Counted from the first letter of the stretch, positions 23,385 through 50,095 are shown. The stretch is 54,068 nt of DNA from a virus (IMGVR_UViG_3300044825_001528:1-54068), one strand, 5' to 3'. Notes: generated by a model from the sequence alone, not told the origin. Numbers and translations: made by a program.

Positions 23385-23746
23385 TGGGGTTATGACCTGA
23401 CCCACCCGGATATTAGGACTAACACATGTTGTGGACTAATATCACTGCTATAGGATTAATAGCAGGCGGCTGTCCCAGCCAAGGGTATAAAAGGCTGATA
23501 GATGAGCTTCGGTGAAGCGATGTAATTGCTACAATCACTGATGCTCCGGTTAGAGTGATCAACACCGTAAAATAATCTATCCCGAGACGAGAAAGAAGCA
23601 GGCTCTATTTACTCAATAGAGATTGATTCTAGATGGAATCAAACAACTGCGCCGAAGAACACCCTCGTCGGTGATGAGAACACCAATCGGTATGCTGATA
23701 AACAATCGGGGCCTTTGTTATACAGATTTTTTTCTGTAGGTCTTTT
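23385..23746 (+). ncRNA. Candidate large structured non-coding RNA (family not recognised)
   Basis: No ORF; more than 12 helices including nested long-range pairs 23497-23503/23575-23581, 23586-23591/23664-23669, 23581-23585/23706-23710; G-U pairs favour the plus strand. Confidence 0.55.
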
Positions 23747-23838
23747 CATTCTCCGTTTTAAATGACTAGAATACATTATCAGTGAATGAATTAAACATCA
23801 GTTCAACAACTAATAATAACTGCTTGTATTATATTAGT

Positions 23839-23985
23839 AGGTCGTTTCGCTTACTCAACGACCTGAATTGGTCATCAGGCTTCGCTTGATGACCAATTCA
23901 TTTTTATCTCTGATTGATTCTATTCAGTTAGAGATAAAGAAAGCCAGAGGCATTAATGCCTCTGGCTGATGAGCGTTAGCTCATC
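23839..23985. repeat. Array of five abutting hairpins/palindromes (possible origin or cruciform element)
   Basis: Stems 23839-46/23857-64, 23864-77/23887-900, 23903-11/23930-38, perfect 26-bp palindrome 23942-67, 23968-74/23979-85. Confidence 0.85.
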
Positions 23986-24129
23986 GTAGATCCAGGATTT
24001 TATTAAGATGAACTGAAGCAAACATGTATAACAGAGTAGGTTTAATCCTAACAAGAAAACAAGCAGACATTGCTGCTTAATTTTGCTTCTAGGATTTTGG
24101 GCGGAGTATGGTCTCGTGATATACTATGT

Positions 24130-24336
24130 TTAGAAGAAGGGCATCTTGCTTTTCTTGGTAGTTTCTAGATTGTCTTCAATGATTTTATTGAGATTATTGA
24201 ACTCATCAGTGCTCATGTTCAATATATCGTTCATTGAGATGCCACCTCGCATATACCAAGCAAGCCGTTGTGCGGTGAACTTGATATTCATGGCATCTTT
24301 CCACATATCTTCGCCCAGCTTCTTCATCTCATCCAT
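24130..24336 (-). CDS. Small tail/baseplate assembly chaperone segment, probably also the -1 frameshift extension of the upstream gene
   Basis: LAWYMRGGISMNDILNMSTDE resembles C-terminal extensions of tail assembly chaperones; frame is open back to the slippery site. Confidence 0.7.
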   Translation of the reverse strand: MDEMKKLGEDMWKDAMNIKFTAQRLAWYMRGGISMNDILNMSTDEFNNLNKIIEDNLETTKKSKMPFF

Positions 24337-27452: not shown

Positions 27453-29213
27453 ATGGCATATAAGCGTAAATTTACAAATCCACACGGCTCGTTAAGTCCT
27501 ATAAGTGGAACTAACAGTACTACTGGTGCATGGAATGCAGGAATGGGCAATGCTCAAACTGGAGCATGGACCAATGACTTTGCATACAGAAATTATCAGA
27601 GTAGATTACCAGAGGTATACACTGGACATCCAAATCGTATTGAGCGTTATAATCAGTATGAAATGATGGATGTGGATCCTGAAATCAACGCATGCTTGGA
27701 TATTCTGGCAGAATTCTCAACACAGAGTAATGAACATAACGGCACTCCATTTGATATCAAGTTCAATGAAGAACCAACTACAACAGAAGTTGAACTAATC
27801 AGAAAGCAACTTAAACAATGGTGTACTCTGAATGAATTAGACACTAGAATTTTCAAGATTTTCAGAAACACTGTTAAGTACGGTGATCAGGTATTCGTTC
27901 GCGATCCAGAAAACTTTAAGCTATACTGGGTTGATATGACCAAGGTAGTCAAAGTCATTGTCAATGAAAGTGAGGGCAAGAAACCAGAACAGTATGTAAT
28001 CAAGGACATCAATCCTAATCTACAGAACTTGACAATGGCCGAAAAGACCACTACTGATTTTCAGGCTCAACCACCTACCGCTGGTTACAGTGCTCCATAC
28101 AGCTATACCGTTCCAAATGAACCATACGGAACTACTGGATCTAGATTCAGTTTGGGTATAAATGAAAATGCCATTGATGCTAAACATGTGGTTCATCTAT
28201 CACTAACAGAGGGTCTTGATAGATACTGGCCGTTTGGACAAAGCATACTAGAGAACATATTCAAAGTATACAAGCAAAAGGAATTGCTAGAAGATGCTAT
28301 TCTTATCTATAGAATAGCTCGTGCTCCAGAGCGTAGAATCTTTAAGATTGATGTTGGAAACATGCCTAGTCATATGGCTATGCAATTCGTCAACAGAATC
28401 AAAGACGAAATACATCAGCGTAGAATTCCAAGCATACACGGTGGACAGGCAATAGTTGATGCAACATACAATCCATTGAGTATCAATGAGGATTACTTCT
28501 TCCCAGTGACCGCCGATGGTCGTGGTAGTGATGTTACCACTCTACCTGGTGGACAAAATCTTGGCGAAATTGATGATCTAAAATACTTCAACAACAGACT
28601 AGCTCGTGGTCTTCGCATTCCTAGTAGCTATTTGCCAACAGGCCCAGAAGACAGTGAGCGCCCACTAGTAGATGGAAAAGTAGGTACAGCACTGATTCAA
28701 GAGTATAGATTCAATCAGTATTGCGAAAGATTGCAGGGCTACATAGATAGAAAATTGGACGAAGAGTTCAAACTATTCATGCGTTGGAGAGGATTCAACA
28801 TAGACAGTGGTCTGTTCAGCTTGCGGTTCAATCCCCCACAGAACTTTGCCGCATATCGTCAAAGCGAACTAGATAGCACTAGAGTTCAAACATTTACTCA
28901 AATGGCTGCTCTACCATATATCAGCACTAGATTTGCTCTTGAGAGATTTCTAGGATTGAGTCAAGATGAAATCAAGAAGAATGAGAAGCTATGGGAAGAA
29001 GAGCGTATCAAACCAGATGAGCTTGAACCAAAAGGAACTGACTTACGCAGTGTTGGATTAAGCACAGCCGACATTGAAAGTGATTCCGAAGCAGCAGAAG
29101 CTATATCAGCAGAAGGAACTCCTGAAGCTGAAGCTGGATTAGCTCCAGAAGTTACCGCGCCAGTGGCAACGCCTCCAGCAGCAGGTCCTGAGGTAGCGCC
29201 CCCTCCAGCTTAA
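27453..29213 (+). CDS. gp20: Portal vertex protein
   Basis: LLEDAILIYRIARAPERRIFKIDVGNMP, EDYFFP, TLPGGQNLGEIDDLKYF, LRIPSSYL. Confidence 0.96.
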   Translation: MAYKRKFTNPHGSLSPISGTNSTTGAWNAGMGNAQTGAWTNDFAYRNYQSRLPEVYTGHPNRIERYNQYEMMDVDPEINACLDILAEFSTQSNEHNGTPFDIKFNEEPTTTEVELIRKQLKQWCTLNELDTRIFKIFRNTVKYGDQVFVRDPENFKLYWVDMTKVVKVIVNESEGKKPEQYVIKDINPNLQNLTMAEKTTTDFQAQPPTAGYSAPYSYTVPNEPYGTTGSRFSLGINENAIDAKHVVHLSLTEGLDRYWPFGQSILENIFKVYKQKELLEDAILIYRIARAPERRIFKIDVGNMPSHMAMQFVNRIKDEIHQRRIPSIHGGQAIVDATYNPLSINEDYFFPVTADGRGSDVTTLPGGQNLGEIDDLKYFNNRLARGLRIPSSYLPTGPEDSERPLVDGKVGTALIQEYRFNQYCERLQGYIDRKLDEEFKLFMRWRGFNIDSGLFSLRFNPPQNFAAYRQSELDSTRVQTFTQMAALPYISTRFALERFLGLSQDEIKKNEKLWEEERIKPDELEPKGTDLRSVGLSTADIESDSEAAEAISAEGTPEAEAGLAPEVTAPVATPPAAGPEVAPPPA

Positions 29214-30436: not shown

Positions 30437-31069
30437 ATGTCGCGATATCTACGAGAAAACTTGACTTTCGACCGCGCTAGTATGGTGGTCGAAAGCGTCA
30501 AGGAAGGAGAAATGAAGGCTCTATACATGAAGGGCATCTTCATTCAGGGTGGGGTAAAGAACGCCAATGAGCGTGTTTATCCCGTTTCCGAGATTGAGCG
30601 TGCTGTAGAAGATCTCAATACTCAAATCAGAGAAGGTCATAGTATTCTGGGCGAAGTAGATCATCCAGACGATCTTAAAATCAACTTGGATCGTGTCAGT
30701 CACATGATTAACAACATGTGGATGGATGGTCCAAATGGTTATGGAAAACTGAAAATATTACCGACTCCAATGGGCCAACTGGTATCTACTATGTTGGAAA
30801 GTGGAGTCAAACTAGGTGTGAGTAGTCGCGGAAGCGGTAACGTAGACGATACTACTGGCAAAGTAAGTGACTTTGAAATCGTCACAGTGGACATTGTAGC
30901 TCAACCAAGTGCCCCAAACGCTTATCCAAAAGCAATATACGAAGGACTAATGAACATGCGTCATGGTCATCGTGTATTGGATAATCTAAAAGGTGCTGGT
31001 TCAGATGCAAAGGTCCAAAAATTCTTGAAAGAAGAAGTAATTCGTCTTATCAAGGATTTGAAAATCTAA
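30437..31069 (+). CDS. gp21: Prohead core protease
   Basis: GIFIQGGVKNANERVYP, GEVDHP, GVSSRGSG, DIVAQPSAPNAY. Confidence 0.95.
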   Translation: MSRYLRENLTFDRASMVVESVKEGEMKALYMKGIFIQGGVKNANERVYPVSEIERAVEDLNTQIREGHSILGEVDHPDDLKINLDRVSHMINNMWMDGPNGYGKLKILPTPMGQLVSTMLESGVKLGVSSRGSGNVDDTTGKVSDFEIVTVDIVAQPSAPNAYPKAIYEGLMNMRHGHRVLDNLKGAGSDAKVQKFLKEEVIRLIKDLKI

Positions 31070-32214: not shown

Positions 32215-33435
32215 ATGTCAAAAGTACTATTAGAGAGCCGTTGGGGCGAAACAAAGGAAGCCCTCCTAGAAGGTCTCCAAGGAACTCGCCGTTCAACAAT
32301 GGGTGTGATTCTAGAGAACACCCGCAAGCAGCTACTACAAGAAAGCAGTGCCGGAACAACCACAGCAGGTAACATCGCAACACTAAACCGTGTTATTCTA
32401 CCAGTTATCCGCCGTGTGATGCCAACCGTTATCGCTAACGAACTAGTAGGTGTACAGCCAATGACTGGTCCAGTTGGTCAGATTCATACTCTGCGTGTTC
32501 GTTACGCACAGAATCTAGGCCCATACGGTGCTAGCGATCCACAAAACGTCGCTAGTGTTGTAGCTGGTGAAGAAGCATTGAGCCCATTCAAGATTGCTCA
32601 AGCATACTCACGCACTCCTGCTGCTACTTCCACGGCCGCTGGAACACCTCCATTCTACACTGCTGCTGATACAGCAACACTAGAAGGCAACGGTGGCAAG
32701 CAGATCAGCGTTCAGATTCTGCGTCAAGCAGTTGAAGCCAAGAGCCGTAAGCTCCAGGCTCGTTGGACATTTGAAGCCGCTCAAGATGCACAGAGCCAAC
32801 ATGGTATCGACGTTGAAGCCGAAATCATGGCTGCTCTAGCTCAAGAGATCACCGCTGAAATCGACCAAGAGATTCTATTGAGCCTACGCAGTCTAGCTGC
32901 AACAGAGTTCACATACAATCAGGCTACCGTTAGCGGTACCGCAACATTCGTTGGTGACGAGCACGCTGCTCTAGCTGTTCTAATCAATCGTGTTGCTAAC
33001 CTGATTGCCCAGCGTACCCGTCGTGGTGCTGGTAACTGGACCGTTGTTTCAAGTGAGGCTCTAACTGTTCTACAGAGCGCCACAACTTCAGCATTTGCTC
33101 GCACAACAGAGGGCACATTTGAAGCTCCAACTAACACCAAGCTAGTTGGTACACTGAACAACGCAATGCGCGTATTCGTTGACTCATATGCTCCAACAGG
33201 AACTCCAGTTCTAGTTGGATACAAAGGTTCAAGCGAAACTGATGCTCCAGCATTCTACTGCCCATACATTCCATTGATGAGCAGTGGTGTTGTGTTGGAT
33301 CCAAGCACTTTCGAACCAGTCGTAAGCTTCATGACCAGATATGGATACATTGAGCTTACCAATACTGCCAGTTCGTTTGGCAATGCAGCCGATTACGTTG
33401 GTGAAATAAATATAACTAACGTAACTTTCCAATAA
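32215..33435 (+). CDS. gp23: Major capsid protein
   Basis: IRRVMPTVIANELVGVQPMTGPVGQI, AKSRKLQARWTFEAAQD, FYCPYIPL, MTRYG. Confidence 0.97.
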   Translation: MSKVLLESRWGETKEALLEGLQGTRRSTMGVILENTRKQLLQESSAGTTTAGNIATLNRVILPVIRRVMPTVIANELVGVQPMTGPVGQIHTLRVRYAQNLGPYGASDPQNVASVVAGEEALSPFKIAQAYSRTPAATSTAAGTPPFYTAADTATLEGNGGKQISVQILRQAVEAKSRKLQARWTFEAAQDAQSQHGIDVEAEIMAALAQEITAEIDQEILLSLRSLAATEFTYNQATVSGTATFVGDEHAALAVLINRVANLIAQRTRRGAGNWTVVSSEALTVLQSATTSAFARTTEGTFEAPTNTKLVGTLNNAMRVFVDSYAPTGTPVLVGYKGSSETDAPAFYCPYIPLMSSGVVLDPSTFEPVVSFMTRYGYIELTNTASSFGNAADYVGEINITNVTFQ

Positions 33436-38000: not shown

Positions 38001-39096
38001 TGATAGCACTGGTGTCCCATTCGTAATGACCAACACTGCTCTAGGCGGTAACAGGCTACGATTGATAGGCACTGATCTAACCGCAGCGGGGAACGCAAGT
38101 GCTCTAGACATCACCAATGTAACCAATTGCTTCATCAACGATATCAACACAAGCAGCGCCAAGGTGGGTGGCAGTGCTTGGAAGATAGCTGATTCGGTAA
38201 TGACCATAGGAACCGTCCAACTAGTTGGAAGTGGAACTAACGGTCCCGCCAATCTGCTAGAGGTCACAGGCGCTACCAGCATAGTGTCTGTGGGCTATAG
38301 TAGCTTCACAAGCGGCACTACCAATGGCAACGGCATCTATATCGGTGCTGGTGCTCGTGTGATTGCTGGTGCCAACTTCTACAACATCCCGCTGGGCACT
38401 GGCTACAGCGTGACTGGTGCTGCTGGCGGCATCTATGTTCGCGGTGGCAATCAGGCTGTACCTGGTACTAACAATGGCGTGAACCCATTGTTGTCACTGT
38501 CAACATTCAATATGAACACGCATATCGCTGCTAGTGATATAGTTGGCGCTGTTGCTATTGCCAATGGAGGCACTGGGCAGACAAGTAAGACAGCAGCGTT
38601 CGACGCACTGGCTCCTACTACCACTGCTGGCGACTTGATCTACTACAACGGTACCGACAATGTTCGTCTACCCGCTGGCAGCAACAATCAAGTACTGTCT
38701 CTAAATGGTACTACTCCAACTTGGGTCAACGGCGTTAGGAAAACCACTGGTAGCTGGACAGTGACACCAGGGTCTAGCACATATAGCTTCAGTGTTCCAG
38801 ACAACAATACCTATACGATGTGGGTCAGAGGAAACATTCCCAATGGCATCATCGTGTGGAACGCTACCGTTTCGCTGTCCAATGCCAATGTTCCAGCGAT
38901 AGGCACGCAGTACGGTTGGTATTATCTAGCCGGAAATCAGTTAGTGCTAACATCAATGCCCGATCAGATAATAGGCACGGCAGGTAGCATTAGCACGGCA
39001 ACTGTAGCTACTACCACAGCAAACACCTTCACATTCGGCATAACAAACAACAGTGGGTCTAACTGTACCATTGAATATGGATACATAACACTATGA
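35047..39096 (+). CDS. Multi-domain tail fibre / receptor-binding protein
   Basis: INVGELPNDGSGDPLRLAFQKINDNF (T4 gp9/gp10-type attachment motif), VAVGDxGTI propeller repeats, repeated GGTGxTT fibre modules, YVSKGGND...GSITKPFLTI beta-helix start. Confidence 0.8.
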   Translation: MTQQIINVGELPNDGSGDPLRLAFQKINDNFTQVFTAPGAAGTDGSFQYRSLNSLTAAAYYDTLWVLGGITQWWTSVDAVTCEPLTTYTPTSAVKQIYAAATGFIAVGADSMLLTSGDGLIWTARSPADPSNFNGVAQYDGGRYVIVGDAGAIQTSLDAITWTSVVSGTSQHLNSVAVSSIGWVAVGDNGTIVFSSNGTTWVLVTPTGTSENLNSVVYDGSYYVAVGDGGTILRSADGTVWVPIVTTITENLTSVTTGVFDGDTIDVAVGDSGAIYTSTDFSTTWEQPLGYTRVASNLTSVCRYNNLFLAVGLNGTVLTSPDAVDWSNVTIAGVMVGSTQLTYNDLTEQLTVDSTTISITGNTDINTDSTKSLNIGYTDVSNVNVRSSTTINGRLRLPVYNANPNTAHSVGGDIFYNANTGFLEWFDSVSGLWKVVSDGNPDPSNTLINGNAVFTLESSGNTSVPGSMIPTVANSYDLGSVDSPWRSLYVSNNTIYIDSVPLSVSGNTLTVAGIPVITSDTTDPVITSNTVTSAGLVLTTNTGIQFSDNTVLTSTDSIGTVKSVDISGGNTGLTTADGPITSTGTITLEGTLNIEHGGTGQTTAQLAFDALAPTTNTGDIIYNDGSNNTRLPIGEDDQVLKVVGGVPSWANNQTANTGDVTFSTNVVQGTGYELGLSPGTGFTDDYQYFRVRGGDVPEHLHFDTTNSNAYDLYVGDDQKFFKLSKDGPAIIQSLDANTATGYTWTFGIDGKLTLPVDGDIVNSNGSSVLSVGTVTSIDISGGDTGLLTVGGPITSNGTITIGGTLNVANGGTGATTVAAAFTALAPSQANNAGKLLTTNGTTASWSSLGITNEIYVSKGGNDSTADGSITKPFLTISAAINYLNTNYPVANNSGTQFVIVVGPGLYSENVNINRLLTHLWAYEGKLKTTRISGTVTVTSAVDYQGIFQNVVSLNNLFIDNTTNNALEVTGSIPISIDINNCALYTDSTGVPFVMTNTALGGNRLRLIGTDLTAAGNASALDITNVTNCFINDINTSSAKVGGSAWKIADSVMTIGTVQLVGSGTNGPANLLEVTGATSIVSVGYSSFTSGTTNGNGIYIGAGARVIAGANFYNIPLGTGYSVTGAAGGIYVRGGNQAVPGTNNGVNPLLSLSTFNMNTHIAASDIVGAVAIANGGTGQTSKTAAFDALAPTTTAGDLIYYNGTDNVRLPAGSNNQVLSLNGTTPTWVNGVRKTTGSWTVTPGSSTYSFSVPDNNTYTMWVRGNIPNGIIVWNATVSLSNANVPAIGTQYGWYYLAGNQLVLTSMPDQIIGTAGSISTATVATTTANTFTFGITNNSGSNCTIEYGYITL

Positions 39097-39461
39097 GAGC
39101 ACGAGAGTTTATCAGTGAAGTAAAGAAAACCCAGATGCGTAAGGATCACGAGAACGCTACTACTGGTCGTCATACATTTACTGATGCTCCAGCCGATAGA
39201 TTTTATGTGCTGGGTAAAGTAATGAGTGCTGCTGCTTGTGCTAATGGTTACGATCCACTGAATGTCCCGGCAGAAACTTGGGTAGGAAAACGAAACACTG
39301 CTCATCCATACACAGATGTTGAAGACAAGATGATGAAGCAAGCATATAAAGCGGTAGGAGTCAAATGGAAGGATCACAATCACGGTGATTTACGCAGTAT
39401 GGAGCCAGAAAGCACCAATAGCACTAGTCCAATAAAGCCATTCAAGGGATACAAACGATGA
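39093..39461 (+). CDS. Hypothetical protein with MRAREFISE leader, ending SPIKPFKGYKR
   Basis: ATGA overlaps at both ends; paralogous to the last module of 41088..41972. Confidence 0.78.
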   Translation: MRAREFISEVKKTQMRKDHENATTGRHTFTDAPADRFYVLGKVMSAAACANGYDPLNVPAETWVGKRNTAHPYTDVEDKMMKQAYKAVGVKWKDHNHGDLRSMEPESTNSTSPIKPFKGYKR

Positions 39462-40318
39462 AAATCACGGAGATACTCACTGAAGCTCCGATTACTGATT
39501 ATGTGCCCATTGGAGATTTCAGCAAGGACCTACAGTTTAGAGGACCAGATGTTAAGTTAGCGGTTCACCCAACTAACATCCAAAAGGCTCGTGATTTTTT
39601 CTCTAACTCACCCTACAACTTCAGATTCTTCGTTGTTAATAGTCCCAGAGTGCGACAGCATCGCGAAACTGGCGAAGCGAGTCCTGAAAAAATCCGCGAA
39701 ATATTTCCCAAACAGGCAGATGCTATACTCAAAAATCACGAGAATGCCATCACCGTGATATACATTGGTAACTACGGTCAAGACAAAGTGATGTTCACGC
39801 CGTGGACTATGGCACATAGAGTAGGTCACGCAATCGTGGCAAGTGGAAGATATGATGCGCGAAAATTCAATAACAGCGCCTGGTATAAGCTAGAACAAGA
39901 TTTTCTAGAGAGTATGGGTCTGATATTACAGAACTTCTATGGACTTCAACTTGAGCGTAGAGCATACGGGTCATATTCAGTGTGGGGTAAAAATCGTCAG
40001 CATTTCAACGCACTATTCAACAAAATAGGAACTCAACGCAGCAGTCGTGAAAATCAGATTACCAGACCCTATGAGTTCTTATACGAACTATTCGCGCAAT
40101 TCATTCAGACAGGTGATGTAAAGTTTAATCCACTGCCTATCACCGCATCTTACGGTCGCAAAGCTTGGGGCAGACCAACCAACTATATTGGTTTAAAACA
40201 GCAATATAGAACTCCTGAATTTGATAGAGAAGCTAACCTGAATAAAGTTCGCGAGCAACTAATTAGAAACTTTAATGCGGTATTACAGGACGCTATGGGT
40301 AAAATTTATCTGATGTAA
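39458..40318 (+). CDS. Hypothetical protein with MKITEILTE leader and degenerate zincin-like HRxGH motif
   Basis: TPWTMAHRVGHA with downstream YELFAQ. Confidence 0.7.
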   Translation: MKITEILTEAPITDYVPIGDFSKDLQFRGPDVKLAVHPTNIQKARDFFSNSPYNFRFFVVNSPRVRQHRETGEASPEKIREIFPKQADAILKNHENAITVIYIGNYGQDKVMFTPWTMAHRVGHAIVASGRYDARKFNNSAWYKLEQDFLESMGLILQNFYGLQLERRAYGSYSVWGKNRQHFNALFNKIGTQRSSRENQITRPYEFLYELFAQFIQTGDVKFNPLPITASYGRKAWGRPTNYIGLKQQYRTPEFDREANLNKVREQLIRNFNAVLQDAMGKIYLM

Positions 40319-40322
40319 TGCT

Positions 40323-41078
40323 ATGAGATATCGCGAACTAATCACTGATGCTAGAAAGAATAAAAACGATCCGAAATATCCATTTCACGCTGGATGGGAT
40401 GAGTTGAATAGAATTAAACACAGAGCCAAAATGGTGGGAGATGATTTAGCTGATACATATCAGTTATTCATACCTAAAACTAATCTAGCGGGAATGACCA
40501 GACGAGAAAGAAGATTATCCAATCTTGCCAACAGATATGCCTATGATGAACGGGGTAATTTGCGACCACGATATAAAGATTGGGAAGAGAAAGGGCCAAT
40601 TAGCGAAGCGATACCAATATTGCCGACTGGAAAACCTAATATAGAAGCAGGCGGTAATAAACCAGGTCGAGCATTTTGGACAAGCACTGCGTATAAACAG
40701 AATGGTAGTTGGACTAGCGAATGGAATGAATGGGTAAAGGGTAATATGTCGCACTGGTCTAGTCCCATTGGATATCTGTATCGTGTTCGACCAGGCGCGC
40801 TATTATTGCCGTTTGATAATACATACGATGCCGAAAATATTCAACACGCATTCGCTGATTTAGAAGTTGCCAAACATCCTGAATTTGGTGGATTCGGCTA
40901 CACTACTGATTTTCCTTGGAATCAGATAGTCAAGCATTTTGACGGAGTTCATCACTATAATAGCGGTCGCCGTTTTGATGATTTCACCTATGGCTGGGAT
41001 GTTGAAAGCACTGCGTGGTTTAACACCGACTTCTTACAATTTGCTGGCGAAGTTAAGGTAAATACTTCTAAAGATTGA
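40323..41078 (+). CDS. Two-module hypothetical protein with MRYRELITD leader
   Basis: Basic N-module, PISE-A junction, then a KPGRAFWTST...FDGVH...GWDVES module. Confidence 0.7.
   Translation: MRYRELITDARKNKNDPKYPFHAGWDELNRIKHRAKMVGDDLADTYQLFIPKTNLAGMTRRERRLSNLANRYAYDERGNLRPRYKDWEEKGPISEAIPILPTGKPNIEAGGNKPGRAFWTSTAYKQNGSWTSEWNEWVKGNMSHWSSPIGYLYRVRPGALLLPFDNTYDAENIQHAFADLEVAKHPEFGGFGYTTDFPWNQIVKHFDGVHHYNSGRRFDDFTYGWDVESTAWFNTDFLQFAGEVKVNTSKD
41059..41064 (+). promoter_or_regulatory. Late promoter (TAAATA) for 41088
   Basis: GGTAAATA within the end of the upstream gene, 23 nt before the ATG. Confidence 0.5.
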
Positions 41079-41087
41079 GAATATAAT

Positions 41088-41972
41088 ATGAGAGCCAGAC
41101 AACTACAAGAAGATACCACAACGCTAAAACAGATATACGGCGACGAATATCCCGATGATTATGAGCGTATTTGGCTATATGTGACCTTGCGTGACTTTAA
41201 TATTCCCTTTACAATATTCACTATTCGTCCGCGTGAATTAGAACAACGACTAATATCTCAATACAGAGTAGAGGATTTAGATGAATTAACTGATAAATTG
41301 AAACCAGAACAACGACAGATACTCAAGCGATATATTCGCGATCCTAGATTATCAGACAGTATTATCATCGTTCACAACGATATGATAATTGACGGTAATC
41401 ATCGTGCTTTTGCCGCCGCTCTAAAGGGAGTTCCCGTTAGAGCGATTGATTTGGCAGAAACTGACGCAGAGCAATTGGACGAGAAGTGGAGCAAGAGTTA
41501 TAAGCGTAGTATTGATTGTAATAATCCCAAAGGATTTAGTCAGCGCGCTCATTGCGCCGCTCGCAAAGCTCGTCAGACTGGCAAAAAGACCAAGAGTGCC
41601 AGCGTTAATGAGGGCAGAACAGGAACATTAGCACCAGATGTGGCACGAGCATTACCCGCGGTATATGCTCTACCAGAGTTGCTCAATCAGGATCCCTATC
41701 TACAATACAGATTTGGTGTTGCTATTGCTGGTGCTAAAGGAGCCAAAAAGAGAGCAGAAGACGGAGTTCCTGATTATGGTAAAGAAAGTGCTTGGGGAGA
41801 GAACGAGATTATCGTAAGCTTTGATCCCGACATAGAAACATACATAGATGATGCACTAAAAGCAATGGGTATGAGTGGAAAGAAACTTATAAGCACCAGA
41901 AAGAGCGAAGAGGCAGAGGATGTTTCCAAAAACAGTCCAATCAAGCCTTTCAAGGGTTATCGGCGTCGTTAA
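41088..41972 (+). CDS. Three-module protein: ParB/Srx-like domain, small basic Cys module, paralog of 39093
   Basis: IIDGNHRAFAA (ParB-N-like); QLDE-KWSKSYKRSIDCNNPKGFSQRAHC; SVNE-GRTG...SPIKPFKGYRRR. Confidence 0.72.
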   Translation: MRARQLQEDTTTLKQIYGDEYPDDYERIWLYVTLRDFNIPFTIFTIRPRELEQRLISQYRVEDLDELTDKLKPEQRQILKRYIRDPRLSDSIIIVHNDMIIDGNHRAFAAALKGVPVRAIDLAETDAEQLDEKWSKSYKRSIDCNNPKGFSQRAHCAARKARQTGKKTKSASVNEGRTGTLAPDVARALPAVYALPELLNQDPYLQYRFGVAIAGAKGAKKRAEDGVPDYGKESAWGENEIIVSFDPDIETYIDDALKAMGMSGKKLISTRKSEEAEDVSKNSPIKPFKGYRRR

Positions 41973-43537
41973 TTGAATACTATGGTTCCACTTCCTGTAA
42001 AAGTATAAATTCTATATCCTCCTGACACTGTTATTGTTGGGCTTCCGGTAGTAGTAGCAGCAGAAATAGAGTCAGAAATGCGAAGTATTACAATACCACT
42101 ACCACCGCCTCCTCCAATACTGCTTCCGGAACCTCTTCCTCCACCACCGCCCCCGCTATTTGCTATCCCGGAAGTAGGATTAGAATCTCCAGCGGTTCCA
42201 CCTCCACCACCGCCACTACCACCACTCCCGGGAGAAGACCCTGTTATACATCCCCCTCCACCACCGCCCCCATATATCGCAGGAGATCCAGAAATTGAAG
42301 TCAATAATCCGCTACCACCTGCTCCCCCGACCCCATATCCAGAATTCGCTCCTACGATAGATGCTCCACCGCCTCCACCTCCGCTTCCGCCCACAGAATC
42401 TCTAACGCTAGACCCTCCATTATTTCCTTGTCCTAATATCCCGCTACCACCGCCACCTCCGTAGCCTCCTCCTCCACCGCTTCCTCCGTTGCTTCCATTG
42501 GACAAATTTTGTGGAAGATTTCCACTTCCACCCCCACCCCCAACAGATATTAAAATAGAAAAACGACTATCAGCGCCGTTCAATCCCCCAGAAACTGTGG
42601 CGGCTCCTCCGGCTCCGACCACTATATTGTAAGATTGCGCGGTTAATAATGAAACTGATCCGGCTCTAACTCCTCCGCCTCCTCCGCCTCCGCCAGCAGT
42701 CGTTCCTCCTCCGCCTCCTCCAGCAACAATTACATAATCAACTCCAATTGTCGGCGCTGGCCCAGCATTATCAGGAAAGGACGACCCCGGAGCCCAAACT
42801 ATTCTTACTGCTCCGCTCGCTCCAGCCGAAGACCCTGGATTATCTCCAATTACTACACCACCTCCCCCTCCTCCACCATATAACCCTCCAGGTCCTATTG
42901 GCTGTCCATCACCGCCCGGAGTAATACTACCATATAATCCAGTTCCCCCACCTCCGCCAGAGAAACTTGAAGTTATTATGCTTGATCCTGATCCACTACC
43001 TCCAGGAACTCCATAGCCACCCGCACCACCTCCACCACCCTGTCCATATCCTTGTGGTGTTGAACCACCGACGCCTCCACCTCCCCCATTACCGTCTCCA
43101 GCTCCTCCACTGGGTGCACCAAAAACGGAATATCCTCCAGATCCTCCATTATAACCAACATAACCAGACAATCCGCTAGCAACTCCTCCGGGGTTGGGCA
43201 CTACATTGCCATTGTTACCTCCTCCTCCTTGTACAATTGTTGTAGATCCATCTTTAACAAAGCTGGCAGTAGCAGCCCCGCCAACTTGAACAGACAAACT
43301 CTGTCCTGGAATAACTGGATAATTATTGTAATAAGCTAATGCTCCACCACTACCACCAGCCCAAGGATTTCCTGCCACCCCTCCAAATCCAGTACCGCCC
43401 CCACCTATAGCAACCATAGATACATTTGCTACATTACTTGGAACAATAAAAGTATAGCTTCCTGGAATATTATAGACAATATCTTGTCCTGTTGGAGCCT
43501 CTGATGGATTTCTTCTTCCTATTGGGTTTAAAAACAT
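41969..43537 (-). CDS. Glycine-rich virion/fibre-associated protein with two Gly-rich domains
   Basis: PGSYTFIVPSNVANVSMVAIGGGG...GASGAVRIVW and VDYVIVAGGGGGG...GGSGIVILR...YRIYTFTGSG; AAGGA SD and minus-strand TAAATA upstream. Confidence 0.82.
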   Translation of the reverse strand: MFLNPIGRRNPSEAPTGQDIVYNIPGSYTFIVPSNVANVSMVAIGGGGTGFGGVAGNPWAGGSGGALAYYNNYPVIPGQSLSVQVGGAATASFVKDGSTTIVQGGGGNNGNVVPNPGGVASGLSGYVGYNGGSGGYSVFGAPSGGAGDGNGGGGGVGGSTPQGYGQGGGGGAGGYGVPGGSGSGSSIITSSFSGGGGGTGLYGSITPGGDGQPIGPGGLYGGGGGGGVVIGDNPGSSAGASGAVRIVWAPGSSFPDNAGPAPTIGVDYVIVAGGGGGGTTAGGGGGGGGVRAGSVSLLTAQSYNIVVGAGGAATVSGGLNGADSRFSILISVGGGGGSGNLPQNLSNGSNGGSGGGGGYGGGGGSGILGQGNNGGSSVRDSVGGSGGGGGGASIVGANSGYGVGGAGGSGLLTSISGSPAIYGGGGGGGCITGSSPGSGGSGGGGGGTAGDSNPTSGIANSGGGGGGRGSGSSIGGGGGSGIVILRISDSISAATTTGSPTITVSGGYRIYTFTGSGTIVFN

Positions 43538-43560: not shown

Positions 43561-43572
43561 TAAATATATTTA
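43561..43572. promoter_or_regulatory. Perfect palindrome TAAATATATTTA, i.e. two opposed late promoter boxes
   Basis: Plus TAAATA 43561-66 faces ATG 43572; minus TAAATA 43567-72 faces ATG 43537. Confidence 0.68.
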
Positions 43573-43763
43573 TGAATGAATTAGAAACTATATTACATTT
43601 GGCTGGGGTCAAAAAACAGGACAATAGTTATGGCAAGAGTATTACGCTGACTTCCAGCGATAAAGCTAGAATAATGCGTGAGAATAATATTAGACCAGGA
43701 ACTGATGCTTGGTTCAAGTTATGGTTCTCAAAACCCTACTTAACGGGAGAGAAACCAGTATGA
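43572..43763 (+). CDS. Small protein coupled to terminase
   Basis: MNELETILHLAGV...NIRPGTDAWFKLWF; ATGA overlap with terminase. Confidence 0.7.
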   Translation: MNELETILHLAGVKKQDNSYGKSITLTSSDKARIMRENNIRPGTDAWFKLWFSKPYLTGEKPV

Positions 43764-45328
43764 GCAACGATAATCAGTTTATTAGGTCTAAAGGCCAGAT
43801 AATAGAGCTTACTACTGAACAAATAGATGAAGTCATAAAATGTGCTGATCCTGATACTGGATATCACTACTTTATGACCAACTATTTCTATATTCAGCAT
43901 CCTACGCTTGGACAAACACTATACGATCCCTATGCCTATCAAGTTGATCTGATCAAGAACTATCACGAAAACAGATTTAGCGTATCACTGCTTGGGCGTC
44001 AGCTAGGTAAAACTACCAGTGCTGCTGGTTATCTACTATGGTTTGCAATGTTCCAATACGATAAGACCATATTGATTGCAGCACACCAATATAGTGGCGC
44101 TCAAGAGATTATGCAGCGTATTAGATACGCATATGAAATGTGCCCAATGTGGTTGAAACCAGGAGTAGAAGCATATAATCAGGGCAATATTGACTTTGAG
44201 AATAAGAGTAGAATAGTAGCCAGAGCAACTACAGAAAAAACTGGTCGTGGTATGTCTCTATCACTATTATATTTGGACGAGTTTGCGTTTGTAAGACCAA
44301 CTATAGCAAAAGAGTTCTGGACAGCAATATCACCAACGCTAGCTACTGGTGGTAAATGTATTATCACCAGCACTCCCAATAGTGATGAGGATCAGTTTGC
44401 TCAAATCTGGAAACAAGCTAATAAGAAAATAGATGAGTGGGGGAATCCTACCAAAGTTGGCAAGAATGGATTCAGCCCCTATAAGGCAATATGGAATCAG
44501 CATCCAGACCGAGATGAAGCCTGGGCTAATGAAGAGCGATCAAAGATTGGTGAAGAAAGATTTCTACGCGAACATTGCTGTGAGTTCATAATCTATGAAG
44601 AAACATTGATTAATGGTATTACATTAAGCGATTTAGAAGGTATTAATCCCATTAGCAAAACTGGTCAAGTTCGTTGGTATAAAAAACCCACTAAAGGTCA
44701 CATATATGTAGTGGCATTAGATCCTAGTTTGGGAACGGGCGGAGATAATGCTGCTATACAAGTGTGGGAAGCAGATACCACCACTCAAGTAGCAGAATGG
44801 GCACATAATAGAACAACAATACCAGAGCAGATCAAGCTATTAGCAAATATCAATAAGCAGATATTAGAAGAAACTAATGAGCCAAACAATCTGTATTACT
44901 CACTTGAAAACAACACCATTGGCGAAGCAGCACTAATCAGTTTGTTTGAGTATGGTGAAGAGAATATCAAGGGTTATATGTTAAGTGAGAATAAGTCCGC
45001 TGGTAATGCTCGTAGATTTCGTAGAGGATTCAATACTACTCACAAGAATAAACTATCAAGCTGTGCAAAATTGAAACATCTGATAGAAAGCAAAAAAATG
45101 AAGATAGCCAGTAGTAATCTTATCAGCGAACTGAAAACTTTTGTTGCAAGCGGTGGTAGCTATGCTGCTAAACAGGGAGAAACTGATGACTTGATTATGG
45201 CTACTCTACTTGCGGTCAGAATGTTGCAGCATTTACAAAGTTATAATGTTGATTTAGATCAGCATATTAGAGATCATAATGAGATCATTGAGCCATTGCC
45301 GTTCATTATGACAATGAGTGTAGCATAA
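43760..45328 (+). CDS. gp17: Terminase large subunit
   Basis: GRQLGKTT Walker A, LLYLDEFAFV Walker B, ITSTPN, FLREHCCEF, ALDPSLGTGGD, ENN, DDLIMA; start at ATG 43760. Confidence 0.95.
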   Translation: MSNDNQFIRSKGQIIELTTEQIDEVIKCADPDTGYHYFMTNYFYIQHPTLGQTLYDPYAYQVDLIKNYHENRFSVSLLGRQLGKTTSAAGYLLWFAMFQYDKTILIAAHQYSGAQEIMQRIRYAYEMCPMWLKPGVEAYNQGNIDFENKSRIVARATTEKTGRGMSLSLLYLDEFAFVRPTIAKEFWTAISPTLATGGKCIITSTPNSDEDQFAQIWKQANKKIDEWGNPTKVGKNGFSPYKAIWNQHPDRDEAWANEERSKIGEERFLREHCCEFIIYEETLINGITLSDLEGINPISKTGQVRWYKKPTKGHIYVVALDPSLGTGGDNAAIQVWEADTTTQVAEWAHNRTTIPEQIKLLANINKQILEETNEPNNLYYSLENNTIGEAALISLFEYGEENIKGYMLSENKSAGNARRFRRGFNTTHKNKLSSCAKLKHLIESKKMKIASSNLISELKTFVASGGSYAAKQGETDDLIMATLLAVRMLQHLQSYNVDLDQHIRDHNEIIEPLPFIMTMSVA

Positions 45329-45331
45329 ATA
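45326..45331 (+). promoter_or_regulatory. Late promoter (TAAATA) overlapping the terminase stop
   Basis: CATAAATA-7 nt-ATG 45339. Confidence 0.65.
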
Positions 45332-45338
45332 ATAGATT

Positions 45339-46379
45339 ATGCGTATATCTGAAATACTTAATGAAGTTGATCGTAGAGGGTTTTTGAAGAAATTAGCAGG
45401 AGGTGCTGCGGCTGGAGCGGCAGCAGTTGGTGCTCTAAAAGCACCCTGGGAAAAATTCTTCAAAGGTGACGAGGTATCAGATGATTATGGTAAAGAAGCA
45501 GAACCAGTAAATATTCCCAGACAGGCAATGCTAATCAATTTAGCTAGAAGACAAATGGAAAATCTGCGATCAATGAATATTATTAATTCGGCTACATTAC
45601 AGCAGTATTCAGAAAGAGCATTAATTAGAGCATTATTATCGGCTAAACCATATGCTTCAAATCAAGAAATAGCACAATTTTTGGCACAATGTAAGGGAGA
45701 AACTGGAGCTTTTACTAGTCTAGACGAGAGATTAGAATGGAAAACTCCCGAGAGAATGTTTAGGCATTTCACAAAGAAACTCAATCCAAATATCAAGAAT
45801 GTGGATAATATTAGTCCTGAAGAACGACAGATCGGTATGGAAAAAGCACAAGAGCTAATATCAAACCCAGAAGATTTTAAATCACCCTATCTTGCCAATT
45901 TCATCTATGCTAATGTCATTGGAAACGGCCCAGAAGATACTGGTGATGGTTGGAATTACAGAGGAAAAGGATTCTTGCATTTGACTGGAAAAGCTAATTA
46001 TAGAGATATTGGCGGAGAATCATTGGTTGCTAATCCAGATTTATTGCTTACTGATATGAATTGGGCGATATTTACAGCAGTTAATTATTGGCTAAAAAGA
46101 GTAGCGTCTAAATCTAATGATTGGGCAGATACAGCAAAAATTACTAAACTAGTTAATCCAAACACAGGTGCCGATGCAATAAGCAAAAGAGATCGTTATT
46201 TCAAAGAATATATGAAGATAATAGGTTCTGTTGCTGATGAAATAAGAAAAGAACTACACATTAGACAACCACATCTTCCAAAAAATCGTCCGCATCCAAG
46301 CACAGAACGCCCAACTCTTAAGACTCCTCCAAAGACTAAAACTAAAAAACCAGCTATTAAAAAGCCAACAAGGAAGTAG
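45339..46379 (+). CDS. GH19-family peptidoglycan hydrolase with twin-arginine-like N-terminal signal
   Basis: AQFLAQCKGETG, ANFIYANVIGNG, GDGWNYRGKGFLHLTGKANY, NPDLL, ITKLVN; N-terminus MRISEILNE-VDRRGFLKKLAGGAAAGAAAVGAL. Confidence 0.85.
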   Translation: MRISEILNEVDRRGFLKKLAGGAAAGAAAVGALKAPWEKFFKGDEVSDDYGKEAEPVNIPRQAMLINLARRQMENLRSMNIINSATLQQYSERALIRALLSAKPYASNQEIAQFLAQCKGETGAFTSLDERLEWKTPERMFRHFTKKLNPNIKNVDNISPEERQIGMEKAQELISNPEDFKSPYLANFIYANVIGNGPEDTGDGWNYRGKGFLHLTGKANYRDIGGESLVANPDLLLTDMNWAIFTAVNYWLKRVASKSNDWADTAKITKLVNPNTGADAISKRDRYFKEYMKIIGSVADEIRKELHIRQPHLPKNRPHPSTERPTLKTPPKTKTKKPAIKKPTRK

Positions 46380-47918: not shown

Positions 47919-49700
47919 ATGAAACAGTTAAAAGAGTTTGAAAACTGGACTGATAGCATAATCAAATCAACTGTATTTGAGAAGAAAGACACACGCGACG
48001 AGCGAGCCATTGAGCGTCAGCGTGATATAGTTTATAAAGCAAAGCAGGCATTTCCTGAGTATCCAGAATCTCAAGCTATTGAATTGTTCCTAGCCGATAA
48101 GCTATCTGACATTGAGCAGCGTGATTTTGAGCAGAACAAAGTCATCAATTTGCAGCGTAGAGAGAATGATAAACTTAAAGGTAATCTACAGGATCTACAA
48201 TCAGAGATTCAGAATATTGAAGCGGGCGGTCAGGAAACTGATCGAGAAATAGCAAGACTCAAACAATTGAGCGGTAAGCTTCAAACTGATGTAGAACAGC
48301 GTAGAGTTGGTGGTCGCGAAGTAAATGAACTATTAGCACAAGTTGAACAACTTAAAAACAAGCCTGGGGTTACTCCAGAACAATATAAAGACATCAAAGA
48401 TAAAGTAGAGGATTTTTCTAAACAAAAAGTCAATCCAGAAGAATTCAAAAAGTTTGAGAATCAACTGAAGACGCTTGCTGCTAGCGAAGCAATAGATAAA
48501 GAACAAATATCCAATTTACAATCAGCGATAGATTCTGTAACCAGAAGACAGGAAAAAATAGGCGATATCAGTGATGTTGCTGGCAAACTTCGTGATTTGG
48601 AGTCTAAACAAAGTGAAATTGAGCAAGTAGCAACTGCCAATAAAGAATTGGTTGGTGATTTAAATCAACGACTAGAAACTCTCGGTGCTGCTGATCGTGC
48701 TGATATTGAGCGTGCATCAGAATTGCTGCGAGATTTACAGGGGACTAAACAAGAGCTTGATGCTAAACAACAAGAACTGTCAGACTTCGAACGCAATCTA
48801 CAGACTCGTGTGGATAAAGAAATTGAACAAGAAAAAGCTACAACCAAGAAAAGAATGCAGGATTATTTTCGTCGTGCTAAAAAACGCAGCGCACAAGCAG
48901 CCACTAAAATCAATGCTCTTGTTGGAAAAGATGCTGGTATAGAAAAAATTCGCGAATTAGGTAGAACTATTACTGATCTTCAAAACAAAGATTTTGAAGA
49001 CATGACAATTTATCCTTCGATAGACGATATATCGTTAGAATTGAGTGGATTGGAAGGATGGCAAGAACTGACAGAGAGAAGAAGAAAGAGAATAGAAGCC
49101 GAAATAAAAAAATTGAAAAGCACTGTTGATTTTCTTCTTAAGAGATTAGTACAGCCGGATCTTCCTAATATTCCTTCTCCTGATCTTACATCGGAATTAG
49201 AACTTTCTCCTGAGCAAAAAAAAGAAAAGGATTATCAAGAATATGTACAACAAGCTAAAGATATAATGAAAAAAAATAACCTTGAACTTGATCTTAAAGA
49301 GGATGCATCTCAGTATGTAAATATAGAACCTGAATATTCAAAGATTATTGAATATTTAAAAGATAAATGGCTCAAATCATCAGATGGTTATCGCGAGACT
49401 GCTTTACTAGCCAATAAATTTCTTGATTTATCTTATCTTGATAGAATTATATATTATTATCTAAAAAAATCCAAAATCGATATTACTTCTATTAATAATG
49501 CCGACTTAGAAAAAGAATTTACTGAAATTTATCTTCCTTTAATCATAAAAAAAACAAATCAAAAAGCAAATCAAAAAGCAAATCAAAAAAAAGATTATTT
49601 GAATCAACCAACTAATCCGATAGACAAAGGATTATCAGAACTGGAAGAATCATTGGACAGAATCATAGGTAAAGATGTAGCAACTTGGATAAAACGATGA
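47919..49700 (+). CDS. Long coiled-coil hypothetical protein
   Basis: AAGGA SD; heptad-rich E/K/Q/L composition; AT-rich C-terminal segment. Confidence 0.75.
   Translation: MKQLKEFENWTDSIIKSTVFEKKDTRDERAIERQRDIVYKAKQAFPEYPESQAIELFLADKLSDIEQRDFEQNKVINLQRRENDKLKGNLQDLQSEIQNIEAGGQETDREIARLKQLSGKLQTDVEQRRVGGREVNELLAQVEQLKNKPGVTPEQYKDIKDKVEDFSKQKVNPEEFKKFENQLKTLAASEAIDKEQISNLQSAIDSVTRRQEKIGDISDVAGKLRDLESKQSEIEQVATANKELVGDLNQRLETLGAADRADIERASELLRDLQGTKQELDAKQQELSDFERNLQTRVDKEIEQEKATTKKRMQDYFRRAKKRSAQAATKINALVGKDAGIEKIRELGRTITDLQNKDFEDMTIYPSIDDISLELSGLEGWQELTERRRKRIEAEIKKLKSTVDFLLKRLVQPDLPNIPSPDLTSELELSPEQKKEKDYQEYVQQAKDIMKKNNLELDLKEDASQYVNIEPEYSKIIEYLKDKWLKSSDGYRETALLANKFLDLSYLDRIIYYYLKKSKIDITSINNADLEKEFTEIYLPLIIKKTNQKANQKANQKKDYLNQPTNPIDKGLSELEESLDRIIGKDVATWIKR
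49555..49589 (+). repeat. 12-bp tandem repeat (CAAATCAAAAAG x about 3) encoding NQKA
   Basis: Directly visible; in frame. Confidence 0.85.
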
Positions 49701-50095
49701 AGATCAAACATATCATAAGAGAAAACACTGTGCTTGATCGTAAGCCAACAGTGAAGCCAGAGGAAATAGAACTCAATGAACCAGGCGGGTTCAATATAGT
49801 AATCCTGAATGATAATGTGACTCCATATCAGGTGGTAGTAGAGGCTATTATGCATGCAGTAGGACTTTCTGAACACGAAGCATTCAGTAGAATGATGCAG
49901 GCACATCAAATAGGATGGGGAGTAATTGCAACCTATGCCAGCAGAGATATTGCTGAAACTGTAGCCAACAAACTAGAGCAGCATGCTCGTGCCAATACTA
50001 ACTGGGATCATTATAGACCAATGATACCTCCACGCGGTTACTACAGACCCTGGCCACTAACAGCAGAAGTTATGGAGGCTGGTGATGCGTCTTGA
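49697..50095 (+). CDS. clpS: ClpS-like N-degron adaptor with MKIKHIIRE leader
   Basis: FNIVILNDNVTPYQVVVEAI...AFSRMMQAHQIGWGVIATYASRDIAET; ATGA overlap at 49697. Confidence 0.85.
   Translation: MKIKHIIRENTVLDRKPTVKPEEIELNEPGGFNIVILNDNVTPYQVVVEAIMHAVGLSEHEAFSRMMQAHQIGWGVIATYASRDIAETVANKLEQHARANTNWDHYRPMIPPRGYYRPWPLTAEVMEAGDAS

Follow-up and report, generated by a model that had tools for sequence, protein, structure and literature searches.

The gene at positions 45339 to 46379 of a viral DNA fragment, IMG/VR virus record IMGVR_UViG_3300044825_001528:1-54068 (54,068 bases, hereafter the window), encodes a putative GH19 peptidoglycan hydrolase in which a short leader resembling the capsid targeting sequence (CTS) of phage T4 stands directly ahead of a twin-arginine translocation (Tat) signal. 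In relatives of this protein, the export signal follows a cleavage motif of the T4 head protease, also where the signal lies deep inside a long polypeptide. Direct observation covers the sequence features and how they are conserved, as well as the strict pairing, across relatives, of a cleavage motif with the signal. To explain them we favor, tentatively and with a little less than even confidence, a route in which the protein is packed in the phage head, trimmed after Glu9 by an S77 protease, injected, refolded, and exported by the host Tat system to the peptidoglycan. The parts of the gene and its product are as follows:

45339..46379, plus strand: whole open reading frame (ORF), 346 amino acids plus stop, with leader, Tat signal, helical linker, GH19 domain and Lys/Pro tail in that order
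45339..45365, plus strand: leader MRISEILNE (amino acids 1-9), T4 CTS-like, ending in L-N-E, which is a gp21-type L/I-x-E motif
45366..45443, plus strand: Tat-type signal (amino acids 10-35), VD-RR-GFLKK, then the hydrophobic h-region LAGGAAAGAAAVGAL, then KA
45372-45377, plus strand: the arginine pair RR (amino acids 12-13), within the Tat-type signal
45444..45650, plus strand: linker (amino acids 36-104), partly helical, with a conserved S-E-Y-x-K-P-A-x-P stretch in the subfamily alignment
45651..46262, plus strand: GH19 muramidase domain (amino acids 105-308), assigned by profile homology and the Glu pair
45699-45701 and 45726-45728, plus strand: catalytic Glu pair E121 and E130, assigned by alignment
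46263..46376, plus strand: Lys/Pro-rich basic tail (amino acids 309-346), 13 Lys or Arg, 9 Pro, pI 12

The ORF begins with the ATG at 45339, ends with the stop at 46377-46379 on the plus strand, and is open over 346 codons. Its product starts with MRISEILNEVDRRGFLKKLAGGAAAGAAAVGALKAPWEK, that is, MRISEILNE-VDRRGFLKK and a Gly/Ala helix. An earlier note on this DNA (the original prediction) had described this N-terminus, a GH19 domain and a Pro/Lys tail, and ORF translation and profile searches found all three as quoted. The Tat signal that it proposed was also borne out: the NCBI curated Tat model TIGR01409 scored 21.0 bits over residues 10-32 of the protein, above its cut-off of 16.7, and the motif D-R-R-G-F-L-K departs from S/T-R-R-x-F-L-K only at the residue before RR, where Asp stands instead of Ser or Thr. 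The h-region LAGGAAAGAAAVGAL has a mean hydropathy of 1.64 over 15 amino acids and lies under the 1.6 threshold over 19 residues. The Pfam model PF10518 was not listed for this protein at E <= 0.01, and it is precomputed for one relative (P0004).

Conservation of the arginine pair was analyzed in relatives. An exhaustive profile search of 1.84 billion representatives gave 8,106 GH19 hits, the best 150 of which were examined. The subfamily of the protein comprises 10 representatives that are 33-90% identical overall. R12 and R13 are invariant in all 10, and nine of them carry the leader; a word-based search found four full-length relatives, all of which keep both the leader and RRGFL. In two subfamily members, some 30 additional residues separate the leader from RR, which makes these two elements separate modules. 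The outcome for the conservation on which the original prediction had staked its Tat signal is therefore mixed: RR holds within the subfamily, and a sister group of 21 proteins has a signal with W-K/R and no RR in the same place. Of the relatives with RR, 18 of 25 scored above the TIGR01409 cut-off, compared with 0 of 12 RR-less relatives with a Gly/Ala helix, and many relatives in the RR group (including the L022, L029, L035, L036, L039 group) show a textbook A-Q-A↓K c-region. When all ORFs of at least 80 amino acids in the related genome G002 were examined, the leader GH19 was the sole plausible (non-spurious) one with RR and a hydrophobic N-terminus. No phage TatA gene was found in any of five related phage records by a search that, as a control, detected TatA in 11 of 14 reference genomes; therefore, the Tat system of the host would be required. 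As a separate observation, the RR-less relative P0047 has a LysM-like stretch right behind the signal, matching LysM-containing wall enzymes, which fits a periplasmic, peptidoglycan-bound enzyme.

The leader was compared with the tags of T4 head proteins, and two further features of the window are needed here:

30437..31069, plus strand: prohead serine protease, gp21-type (Peptidase_S77; PF03420, 1.8e-27; 36% identity to T4 gp21, E 1e-22)
39093..41972, plus strand: tandem array of four ORFs with the same leader type (MRAREFISE, MKITEILTE, MRYRELITD, MRARQLQED), without family match

The leader pattern occurs at five ORF N-termini of the window and at no internal position in the 20,792 residues of window ORFs; across the window, 41 related loci and G002, it occurs at 71 distinct ORF N-termini and at six internal positions in 347,307 residues. 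Fifty-five non-GH19 ORFs of this set carry it, and the tagged proteins are mostly unrelated to one another and often encoded in tandem arrays. The N-terminus of the T4 internal proteins (IPs) IPII and IPIII is MKTYQEFIAE in the T4 record. Passages of PMC9026906 state that the first 10 residues of IPIII suffice to direct proteins into the T4 head, as the CTS, and that gp21 cleaves after the Glu of L/I-x-E. We read the leader as a CTS, which would imply packaging, because of its T4-like layout, its N-terminal bias, and its spread over unrelated tandem proteins. The S77 protease at 30437..31069 is the enzyme expected to take off the leader.

Several other leader proteins were observed. In two ORFs of the array, 40323-41078 and 41088-41972, the leader ends in Asp (MRYRELITD and MRARQLQED); since Asp at the last position of the T4 CTS blocks processing and keeps targeting, according to passages of PMC9026906, these proteins may be packaged uncut. 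The leader ORF 39458-40318 had no match among phage records, and a leader protein family of locus L013 was matched by C-terminal pieces only, in cyanophages; the two cyanophage matches that were inspected have neither leader nor signal module. Small leader proteins of 58-85 amino acids that contain A-T-A-G-A-S-S-A-G-x-I-A and are very basic at the C-terminus are recurrent (L003:5269-5499, L005:11535-11792, L010:15101-15301, L018:16618-16806, L022:13244-13441, L039:16946-17152). Their A-T-A-G stretch resembles the window capsid protein just past its putative LQE43 site (SSAGTTTAGNIA), and they look like the small basic head proteins of the T4 IP type. The 636-amino-acid product of window ORF 50082-51992, with DUF6267 and a weak cytidylyltransferase-like match, starts with V/M-M-R-L-D-E-F-V-N, which is leader-like with a final residue that is neither Glu nor Asp.

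Packaging could also be followed by a route that needs no Tat. In this alternative, which we consider unlikely, the protein is packed in the head and ejected via the tail into the periplasm or at the inner membrane, where it cuts peptidoglycan locally; the exposed Gly/Ala helix enters the membrane from outside, and RR is a charged flank. The W-K/R subgroup, which keeps the helix without RR, is consistent with this, as are leader GH19 proteins without any signal and a gp5-like hub protein of the window (11147-14275, minus strand) in which no Pfam lysozyme domain was found at E <= 0.001. Parts of PMC5512222 also propose that lysozyme domains of injected polyvalent proteins breach peptidoglycan on invasion. 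However, the RR group fits the full Tat consensus x-R-R-G-F-L-G/K, which is more than two positive charges, and the separation of RR relatives from controls by the curated Tat model argues against a mere flank, as does the A-Q-A↓K c-region in many RR relatives. In addition, passages of PMC9026906 report that T4 CTS cargo reaches the host cytoplasm.

The pairing of cleavage motif and signal was found on a larger scale. We surveyed 196 GH19 proteins, of which 163 had come from protein searches and 33 were distinct ORFs of the loci; the GH19 domain was located with a hidden Markov model of the subfamily, and up to 200 residues upstream were scanned for a hydrophobic stretch rich in Gly, Ala, Ser or Thr. 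No such stretch was present in 125 proteins, mostly plain endolysin-like ones of about 200 amino acids, while 24 have it behind RR, 21 behind [GDEAS]-W-[KR], and 26 in neither class. In the RR class, 21 of 24 proteins have [LIVM]-x-E in the 12 residues ahead of the signal, and its Glu stands two (15 proteins), three (5) or seven (1) residues before the first Arg. In the W-K/R class, it occurs in 20 of 21, with one residue between Glu and Trp every time. Pooled, the motif lies just upstream in 41 of the 45 and at 1-3 residues before the signal in 40. In 18 of the 45 (3 RR and 15 W-K/R) the module is internal, starting at residues 85-1377 of proteins of up to 1,593 amino acids whose further domains are of NUDIX, ParB, nucleotidyltransferase, amidoligase or other types. 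A Met usable as an internal start at the junction is missing in 16 of these 18 and present in the near-identical pair L018/L021 only. An internal signal could thus have N-terminal function only after cleavage in the head, and a signal buried directly behind a head-protease motif therefore points to exposure by the protease, capsid processing, and use after injection.

The signal module goes together with the wall hydrolase: among 1,712 distinct ORFs, the strict module was found in 23 of 40 GH19 ORFs and in nine of 1,672 others (Fisher p = 3e-34). Four to five of these nine look spurious, and the remaining ones encode leader-bearing proteins or polyproteins in which cleavage motif and signal are internal; on the internal signal of one non-GH19 leader protein, Pfam TAT_signal scored 30.4 bits against a cut-off of 22.7. 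A chance origin of the leader, Tat and module pattern was considered and rejected on the counts of 71 versus 6, 18/25 versus 0/12, and 23/40 versus 9/1,672. RR-type and W-R-type signals precede the same small domain in L007:3016-3981 and L018:17191-18108 and are therefore interchangeable. A module of [LIVM]-x-E followed by RR or W-K/R and a Gly/Ala helix lies internally in these two non-GH19 proteins and in L028:3402-4619, L038:4852-6888 and L017:13982-17743; their C-terminal cargo is unassigned or DUF6321, and in one of them the signal is preceded by a sigma-70 region 4 domain.

The enzymatic domain was identified mainly by profile comparison. The protein matches PHROG_181 'endolysin' at 1.5e-31, and a profile of the 10 subfamily sequences matches solved GH19 phage endolysins (8p8e, 1.6e-29; 9ms6, 3.2e-24; 4ok7, 2.1e-23). 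E121 and E130 are invariant in all 10 representatives and align with the E-S-G-G...E of 8p8e. Pfam PF00182 was a near miss, with 24.9 bits against a gathering score of 25.5 over residues 203-259 only. The AlphaFold2 (AF2) model of the protein has a mean pLDDT of 63.9 and places linker helices at 61-78 and 84-102; its residues 1-57 are below 50, too weak for the signal region. With this moderate model, the top seven Foldseek matches are GH19-type phage or type VI secretion system proteins with TM-scores of 0.35-0.67, E being <= 0.001 in one only. The basic tail is restricted to the protein and its 90%-identical relative and is missing in relatives below 90% identity.

The original prediction had left two possibilities, a holin-independent endolysin exported by Tat and a pre-folded packaged enzyme exported after injection. 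Its remark that no holin lies nearby agrees with our result: a coarse hydropathy test found no holin-like ORF (small, with a strongly hydrophobic 19-residue stretch) among the 36 main ORFs of the window, whose estimated completeness is 16% (implied genome about 340 kb). Two related genomes, G001 (192 kb) and G002 (354,680 bp, estimated complete), whose capsid proteins are 81% and 76% identical to that of the window and which each have an S77 protease, encode a second GH19 ORF besides the one with leader and Tat signal. This second ORF, of 213 and 210 amino acids, has no leader or signal and matches PHROG_181 at 4.8e-76 and 4.3e-75. Its neighbors are small membrane proteins, a protein that has a membrane segment at its N-terminus and matches Rz-like spanins weakly (PHROG_312, 4.7e-4), and a small ORF whose start resembles a lipoprotein signal (PHROG_456 Rz-like spanin, 4.2e-5). 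Because these relatives have such a cassette elsewhere, the lysis cassette of the window phage presumably lies outside the 54-kb fragment. The first possibility is disfavored by the separate leaderless GH19 and spanin cassette, and as part of the full packaging-to-export reading, with the same slightly less than even confidence, the gene would encode a second, virion-borne wall hydrolase and not the endolysin of the lysis cassette.

A related alternative, to which we assign a low probability, is an auxiliary endolysin like those with a signal-arrest-release (SAR) domain. Its precursor would be exported late by Tat from the producer cell, with the leader as n-region and packaging absent or incidental, and the protein, held in the membrane by its weakly hydrophobic Gly/Ala helix, would take part in lysis. 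The precursor does have a complete Tat signal with an 11-residue n-region, its h-region is Gly/Ala-rich as SAR domains are, no A-x-A site is conserved in the subfamily, Pro occupies +1 of the candidate site, a late-promoter-like motif lies upstream of the gene, and one subfamily representative, P0018, retains RR without the leader. This alternative nevertheless leaves unexplained why 55 non-GH19 ORFs have the same leader and why 16 of the 18 internal signals lie behind a protease motif with no start codon. The relatives, moreover, already own a canonical endolysin-spanin cassette, and no holin-like ORF was detected in the window.

For the favored route from head to host export, we infer packaging, cleavage, injection, Tat dependence, and the role of an early periplasmic muramidase from these sequence features. 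After late synthesis, the CTS-like leader would bind the protein to the scaffolding core, so that it is enclosed in the prohead. The gp21-type protease would then cut after Glu9 (L-N-E↓V), and the mature protein would start with V-D-R-R-G-F-L-K-K, placing the Tat signal at the very N-terminus. On infection, the protein would leave the head with the DNA, enter the cytoplasm like T4 internal proteins, and refold. Host TatABC would recognize the twin-arginine signal and export the folded GH19 domain to the periplasm, where it would cut peptidoglycan, either free or membrane-held by an uncleaved Gly/Ala helix. Such an early muramidase may loosen the wall round the entry site or pre-load a lytic enzyme. 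The second possibility of the original prediction is thus favored in its packaging, injection and Tat export by the leader, the gp21-type protease, and the internal signals. Its 'pre-folded' state is not needed, because CTS-GFP of T4 appears to refold once delivered, as reported in passages of PMC9026906.

Both signals are intact in the precursor, which would also suit a dual destination, the pool being split between packaging and export from the producer cell with one signal for each job. We regard this as very unlikely, since the internal signals of the multidomain relatives would be unusable before cleavage.

A number of observations weigh against packaging followed by host Tat export. Of the RR-bearing relatives below the TIGR01409 cut-off, two scored 16.3 bits and five had no hit. 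At the candidate peptidase site of the protein, L-K-A↓P, position +1 is occupied by Pro, a residue that blocks signal peptidase I there; because A-x-A is also not conserved in the subfamily, release into the periplasm by signal peptidase is uncertain. The uncut precursor has a normal-looking Tat signal with its 11-residue n-region, so that export from the producer cell is possible, and P0018 shows that RR can occur without the leader. The proteins of L003, L005 and L008 (580-721 amino acids; leader, HAD-like and GH19) have no hydrophobic module. The window leader, at nine residues, is one residue shorter than the 10-residue T4 leader. In a tblastn search of 50,697 phage records with the protein and a 205-amino-acid homologue from L029, only the GH19 core was matched, from residue 29 at the earliest, and no cultured phage with this arrangement was found. 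The survey counts include near-duplicates (L015/L016, L018/L021, L041/L042, L013/L017/L028), its motif thresholds were set after inspecting the data, and ORF starts were taken as the first ATG, GTG or TTG. Finally, the benefit of delivering a periplasmic muramidase early is not obvious.

By its gene content, the window is a fragment of a jumbo phage, of some 350 kb, with a T4-type head module. Its T4-type morphogenesis set comprises a portal, the S77 protease, a scaffold-like protein, a gp23-type capsid protein, gp25-like and hub-like baseplate proteins, and a large terminase. The features around the gene and in the head module are as follows:

27453..29213, plus strand: portal gp20, T4-type (PF07230, 2.4e-102)
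32215..33435, plus strand: major capsid protein gp23, T4-type (PF07068)
43709..45328, plus strand: large terminase TerL, adjoining the GH19 gene on its 5' side
45325..45331, plus strand: ATAAATA, 14 nt ahead of the GH19 ATG and overlapping the TerL stop codon
46433..47908, plus strand: virion structural protein (PHROG_13484), adjoining the GH19 gene on its 3' side

The GH19 gene is therefore flanked by TerL and a virion structural protein gene. TerL shares 51% identity with its counterpart in PA5oct-type jumbo phages and 46% with the one in Yersinia phage fHe-Yen9-04. Directly after TerL, with nothing between, PA5oct and fHe-Yen9-04 have a gene similar in size to the structural protein gene, matched by position and size only, and it is annotated as 'structural protein, ESI-MS/MS' and 'hypothetical protein', respectively. 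The N-terminal part of the gp23-type capsid protein contains the L/I-x-E motifs ILE34 and LQE43 ahead of the conserved core. TerL probably does not begin at its listed TTG, as database alignments start at residue 18, which is ATG 43760; this ATG overlaps by 4 nt the stop of a 63-amino-acid ORF at 43572-43763.

The ATAAATA motif, which we take to resemble the core of the T4 late promoter, precedes 10 of the 36 main window ORFs, mostly structural, by no more than 60 nt (11 copies on the plus and 4 on the minus strand), which is weak evidence. Copies lie upstream of 7204(-), 10684(-), 24354(-), 25236, 27453, 35047, 41969(-), 45339 and 46433. The gap from motif to start codon is 11-46 nt, and at 11-14 nt the mRNA would be almost leaderless.

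Other observations were made in the window. The gp5/VgrG-like hub (1,042 amino acids) has a weak OB-domain match, and in other phages GH19 is fused to hub-type proteins (P0009, P0108). A ClpS-like adaptor is encoded at 49685-50095 (PF02617, 6.3e-16). The ORF at 41969-43537 on the minus strand encodes an extremely Gly-rich protein of 522 amino acids (PF21722 Gly_rich_2, 8.8e-23) and stands on the opposite strand inside the plus-strand late block. About 700 nt at 23400-24130, between a PDDEXK nuclease gene and a baseplate gene, contain no ORF of at least 50 amino acids, and Rfam and tRNA scans of the whole window, this gap included, gave no match.

The relatives suggest that the arrangement may be general. 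It is possible, although we hold this with some reserve, that a clade of jumbo phages with T4-type heads ships periplasm-bound proteins in the capsid with a masked host signal, either Tat-type or Sec-like. The signal would be masked by an upstream leader or by whole domains until the prohead protease cuts at [LIVM]-x-E directly ahead of it. Only matured, injected copies would then bear a working N-terminal signal, and Tat or Sec of the new host cell would move them, the route being from virion to cytoplasm to periplasm. The cargo would be GH19 muramidases and a few other domains (those of L007:3016-3981, L018:17191-18108, L028:3402-4619 and L038:4852-6888).

In the literature searched, whose coverage leaves subscription journals and about 1.7 million PMC articles outside, we found no natural phage lysin with a Tat signal and no injected phage protein that is re-exported by host machinery; a precedent was not found, which is not to say that it is not in print. 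In passages of papers that name both endolysins and the twin-arginine pathway, the only mentions were of an engineered Tat-signal fusion, speculation on Mu gp25, and a reference to filamentous-phage display. The text of PMC5512222 has no occurrence of 'signal peptide', 'transmembrane', 'twin-arginine' or 'periplasm', and the jumbo-phage overview PMC7824862 has none of 'twin-arginine', 'signal peptide' or 'capsid targeting'.

Each component, namely the T4 CTS, gp21 cleavage, the Tat signal and the GH19 lysin, is textbook knowledge. Their order implies something that the papers searched do not describe, a phage protein that would be injected into the cytoplasm and handed to host export, with its signal switched on by capsid maturation. 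If true, the periplasm would be a new destination for injected phage proteins, and the presence of lysozyme domains at the C-terminal end of giant injected polyproteins would be explained. CTS, signal and cargo would also form a testable design for periplasmic protein delivery by T4-type particles in laboratory strains, and the relay, if shown experimentally, would become a new kind of delivery route. Annotators of such phages should note that a GH19 gene encoding a signal peptide probably does not represent 'the endolysin'.

The protein was compared with known systems. With bacterial Tat substrates (TIGR01409 / PF10518) it shares R-R-x-F-L-K and a Gly/Ala-type h-region that is weakly hydrophobic and has a basic residue close to its end. 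It differs from them in being phage-encoded, in the capsid leader ahead of the signal, in Asp instead of Ser or Thr before RR, and in having no clear A-x-A; in its relatives, the signal is buried in long proteins behind a protease site. Among host wall enzymes, the amidases AmiA and AmiC are exported by Tat. Solved GH19 phage endolysins (SPN1S 4ok7, 8p8e, 9ms6, 9eoi) share the catalytic domain and Glu pair, but they are about 180-225 amino acids long and, unlike this protein, lack leader, signal and basic tail.

SAR endolysins (P1 Lyz, phage 21 R) and signal-peptide endolysins are likewise muralytic, with a weakly hydrophobic, Gly/Ala-rich N-terminal segment such as that formed here by LAGGAAAGAAAVGAL, and SAR endolysins share with this protein that no large-hole holin is needed. 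These endolysins use Sec, serve as the lysis enzyme of the phage, and are encoded next to a pinholin. The present protein instead has a twin-arginine signal and a capsid leader; no holin-like ORF accompanies it in the window, and its relatives own a separate cassette endolysin, from which the cassette of the window phage was deduced.

Virion-associated lysins, T4 gp5 and the injected polyvalent proteins (Iyer et al. 2017, PMC5512222, in part) would have in common with the present protein a particle-borne wall hydrolase, and its relatives resemble polyvalent proteins in that their GH19 domain is fused to others, among them NUDIX, ParB, nucleotidyltransferase and amidoligase. The description of polyvalent proteins in PMC5512222 does not include an export signal that the head protease would unmask. 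With T4 IPI, IPII and IPIII, the protein shares a short tag, M-K/R-x-x-(x)-E-F/I-I/L-x-E, that ends in L/I-x-E, a gp21-type protease in the genome, and the occurrence of the tag on several unrelated, arrayed proteins. The T4 internal proteins act in the cytoplasm, whereas the cargo here is a peptidoglycan hydrolase with a host export signal directly behind the tag.

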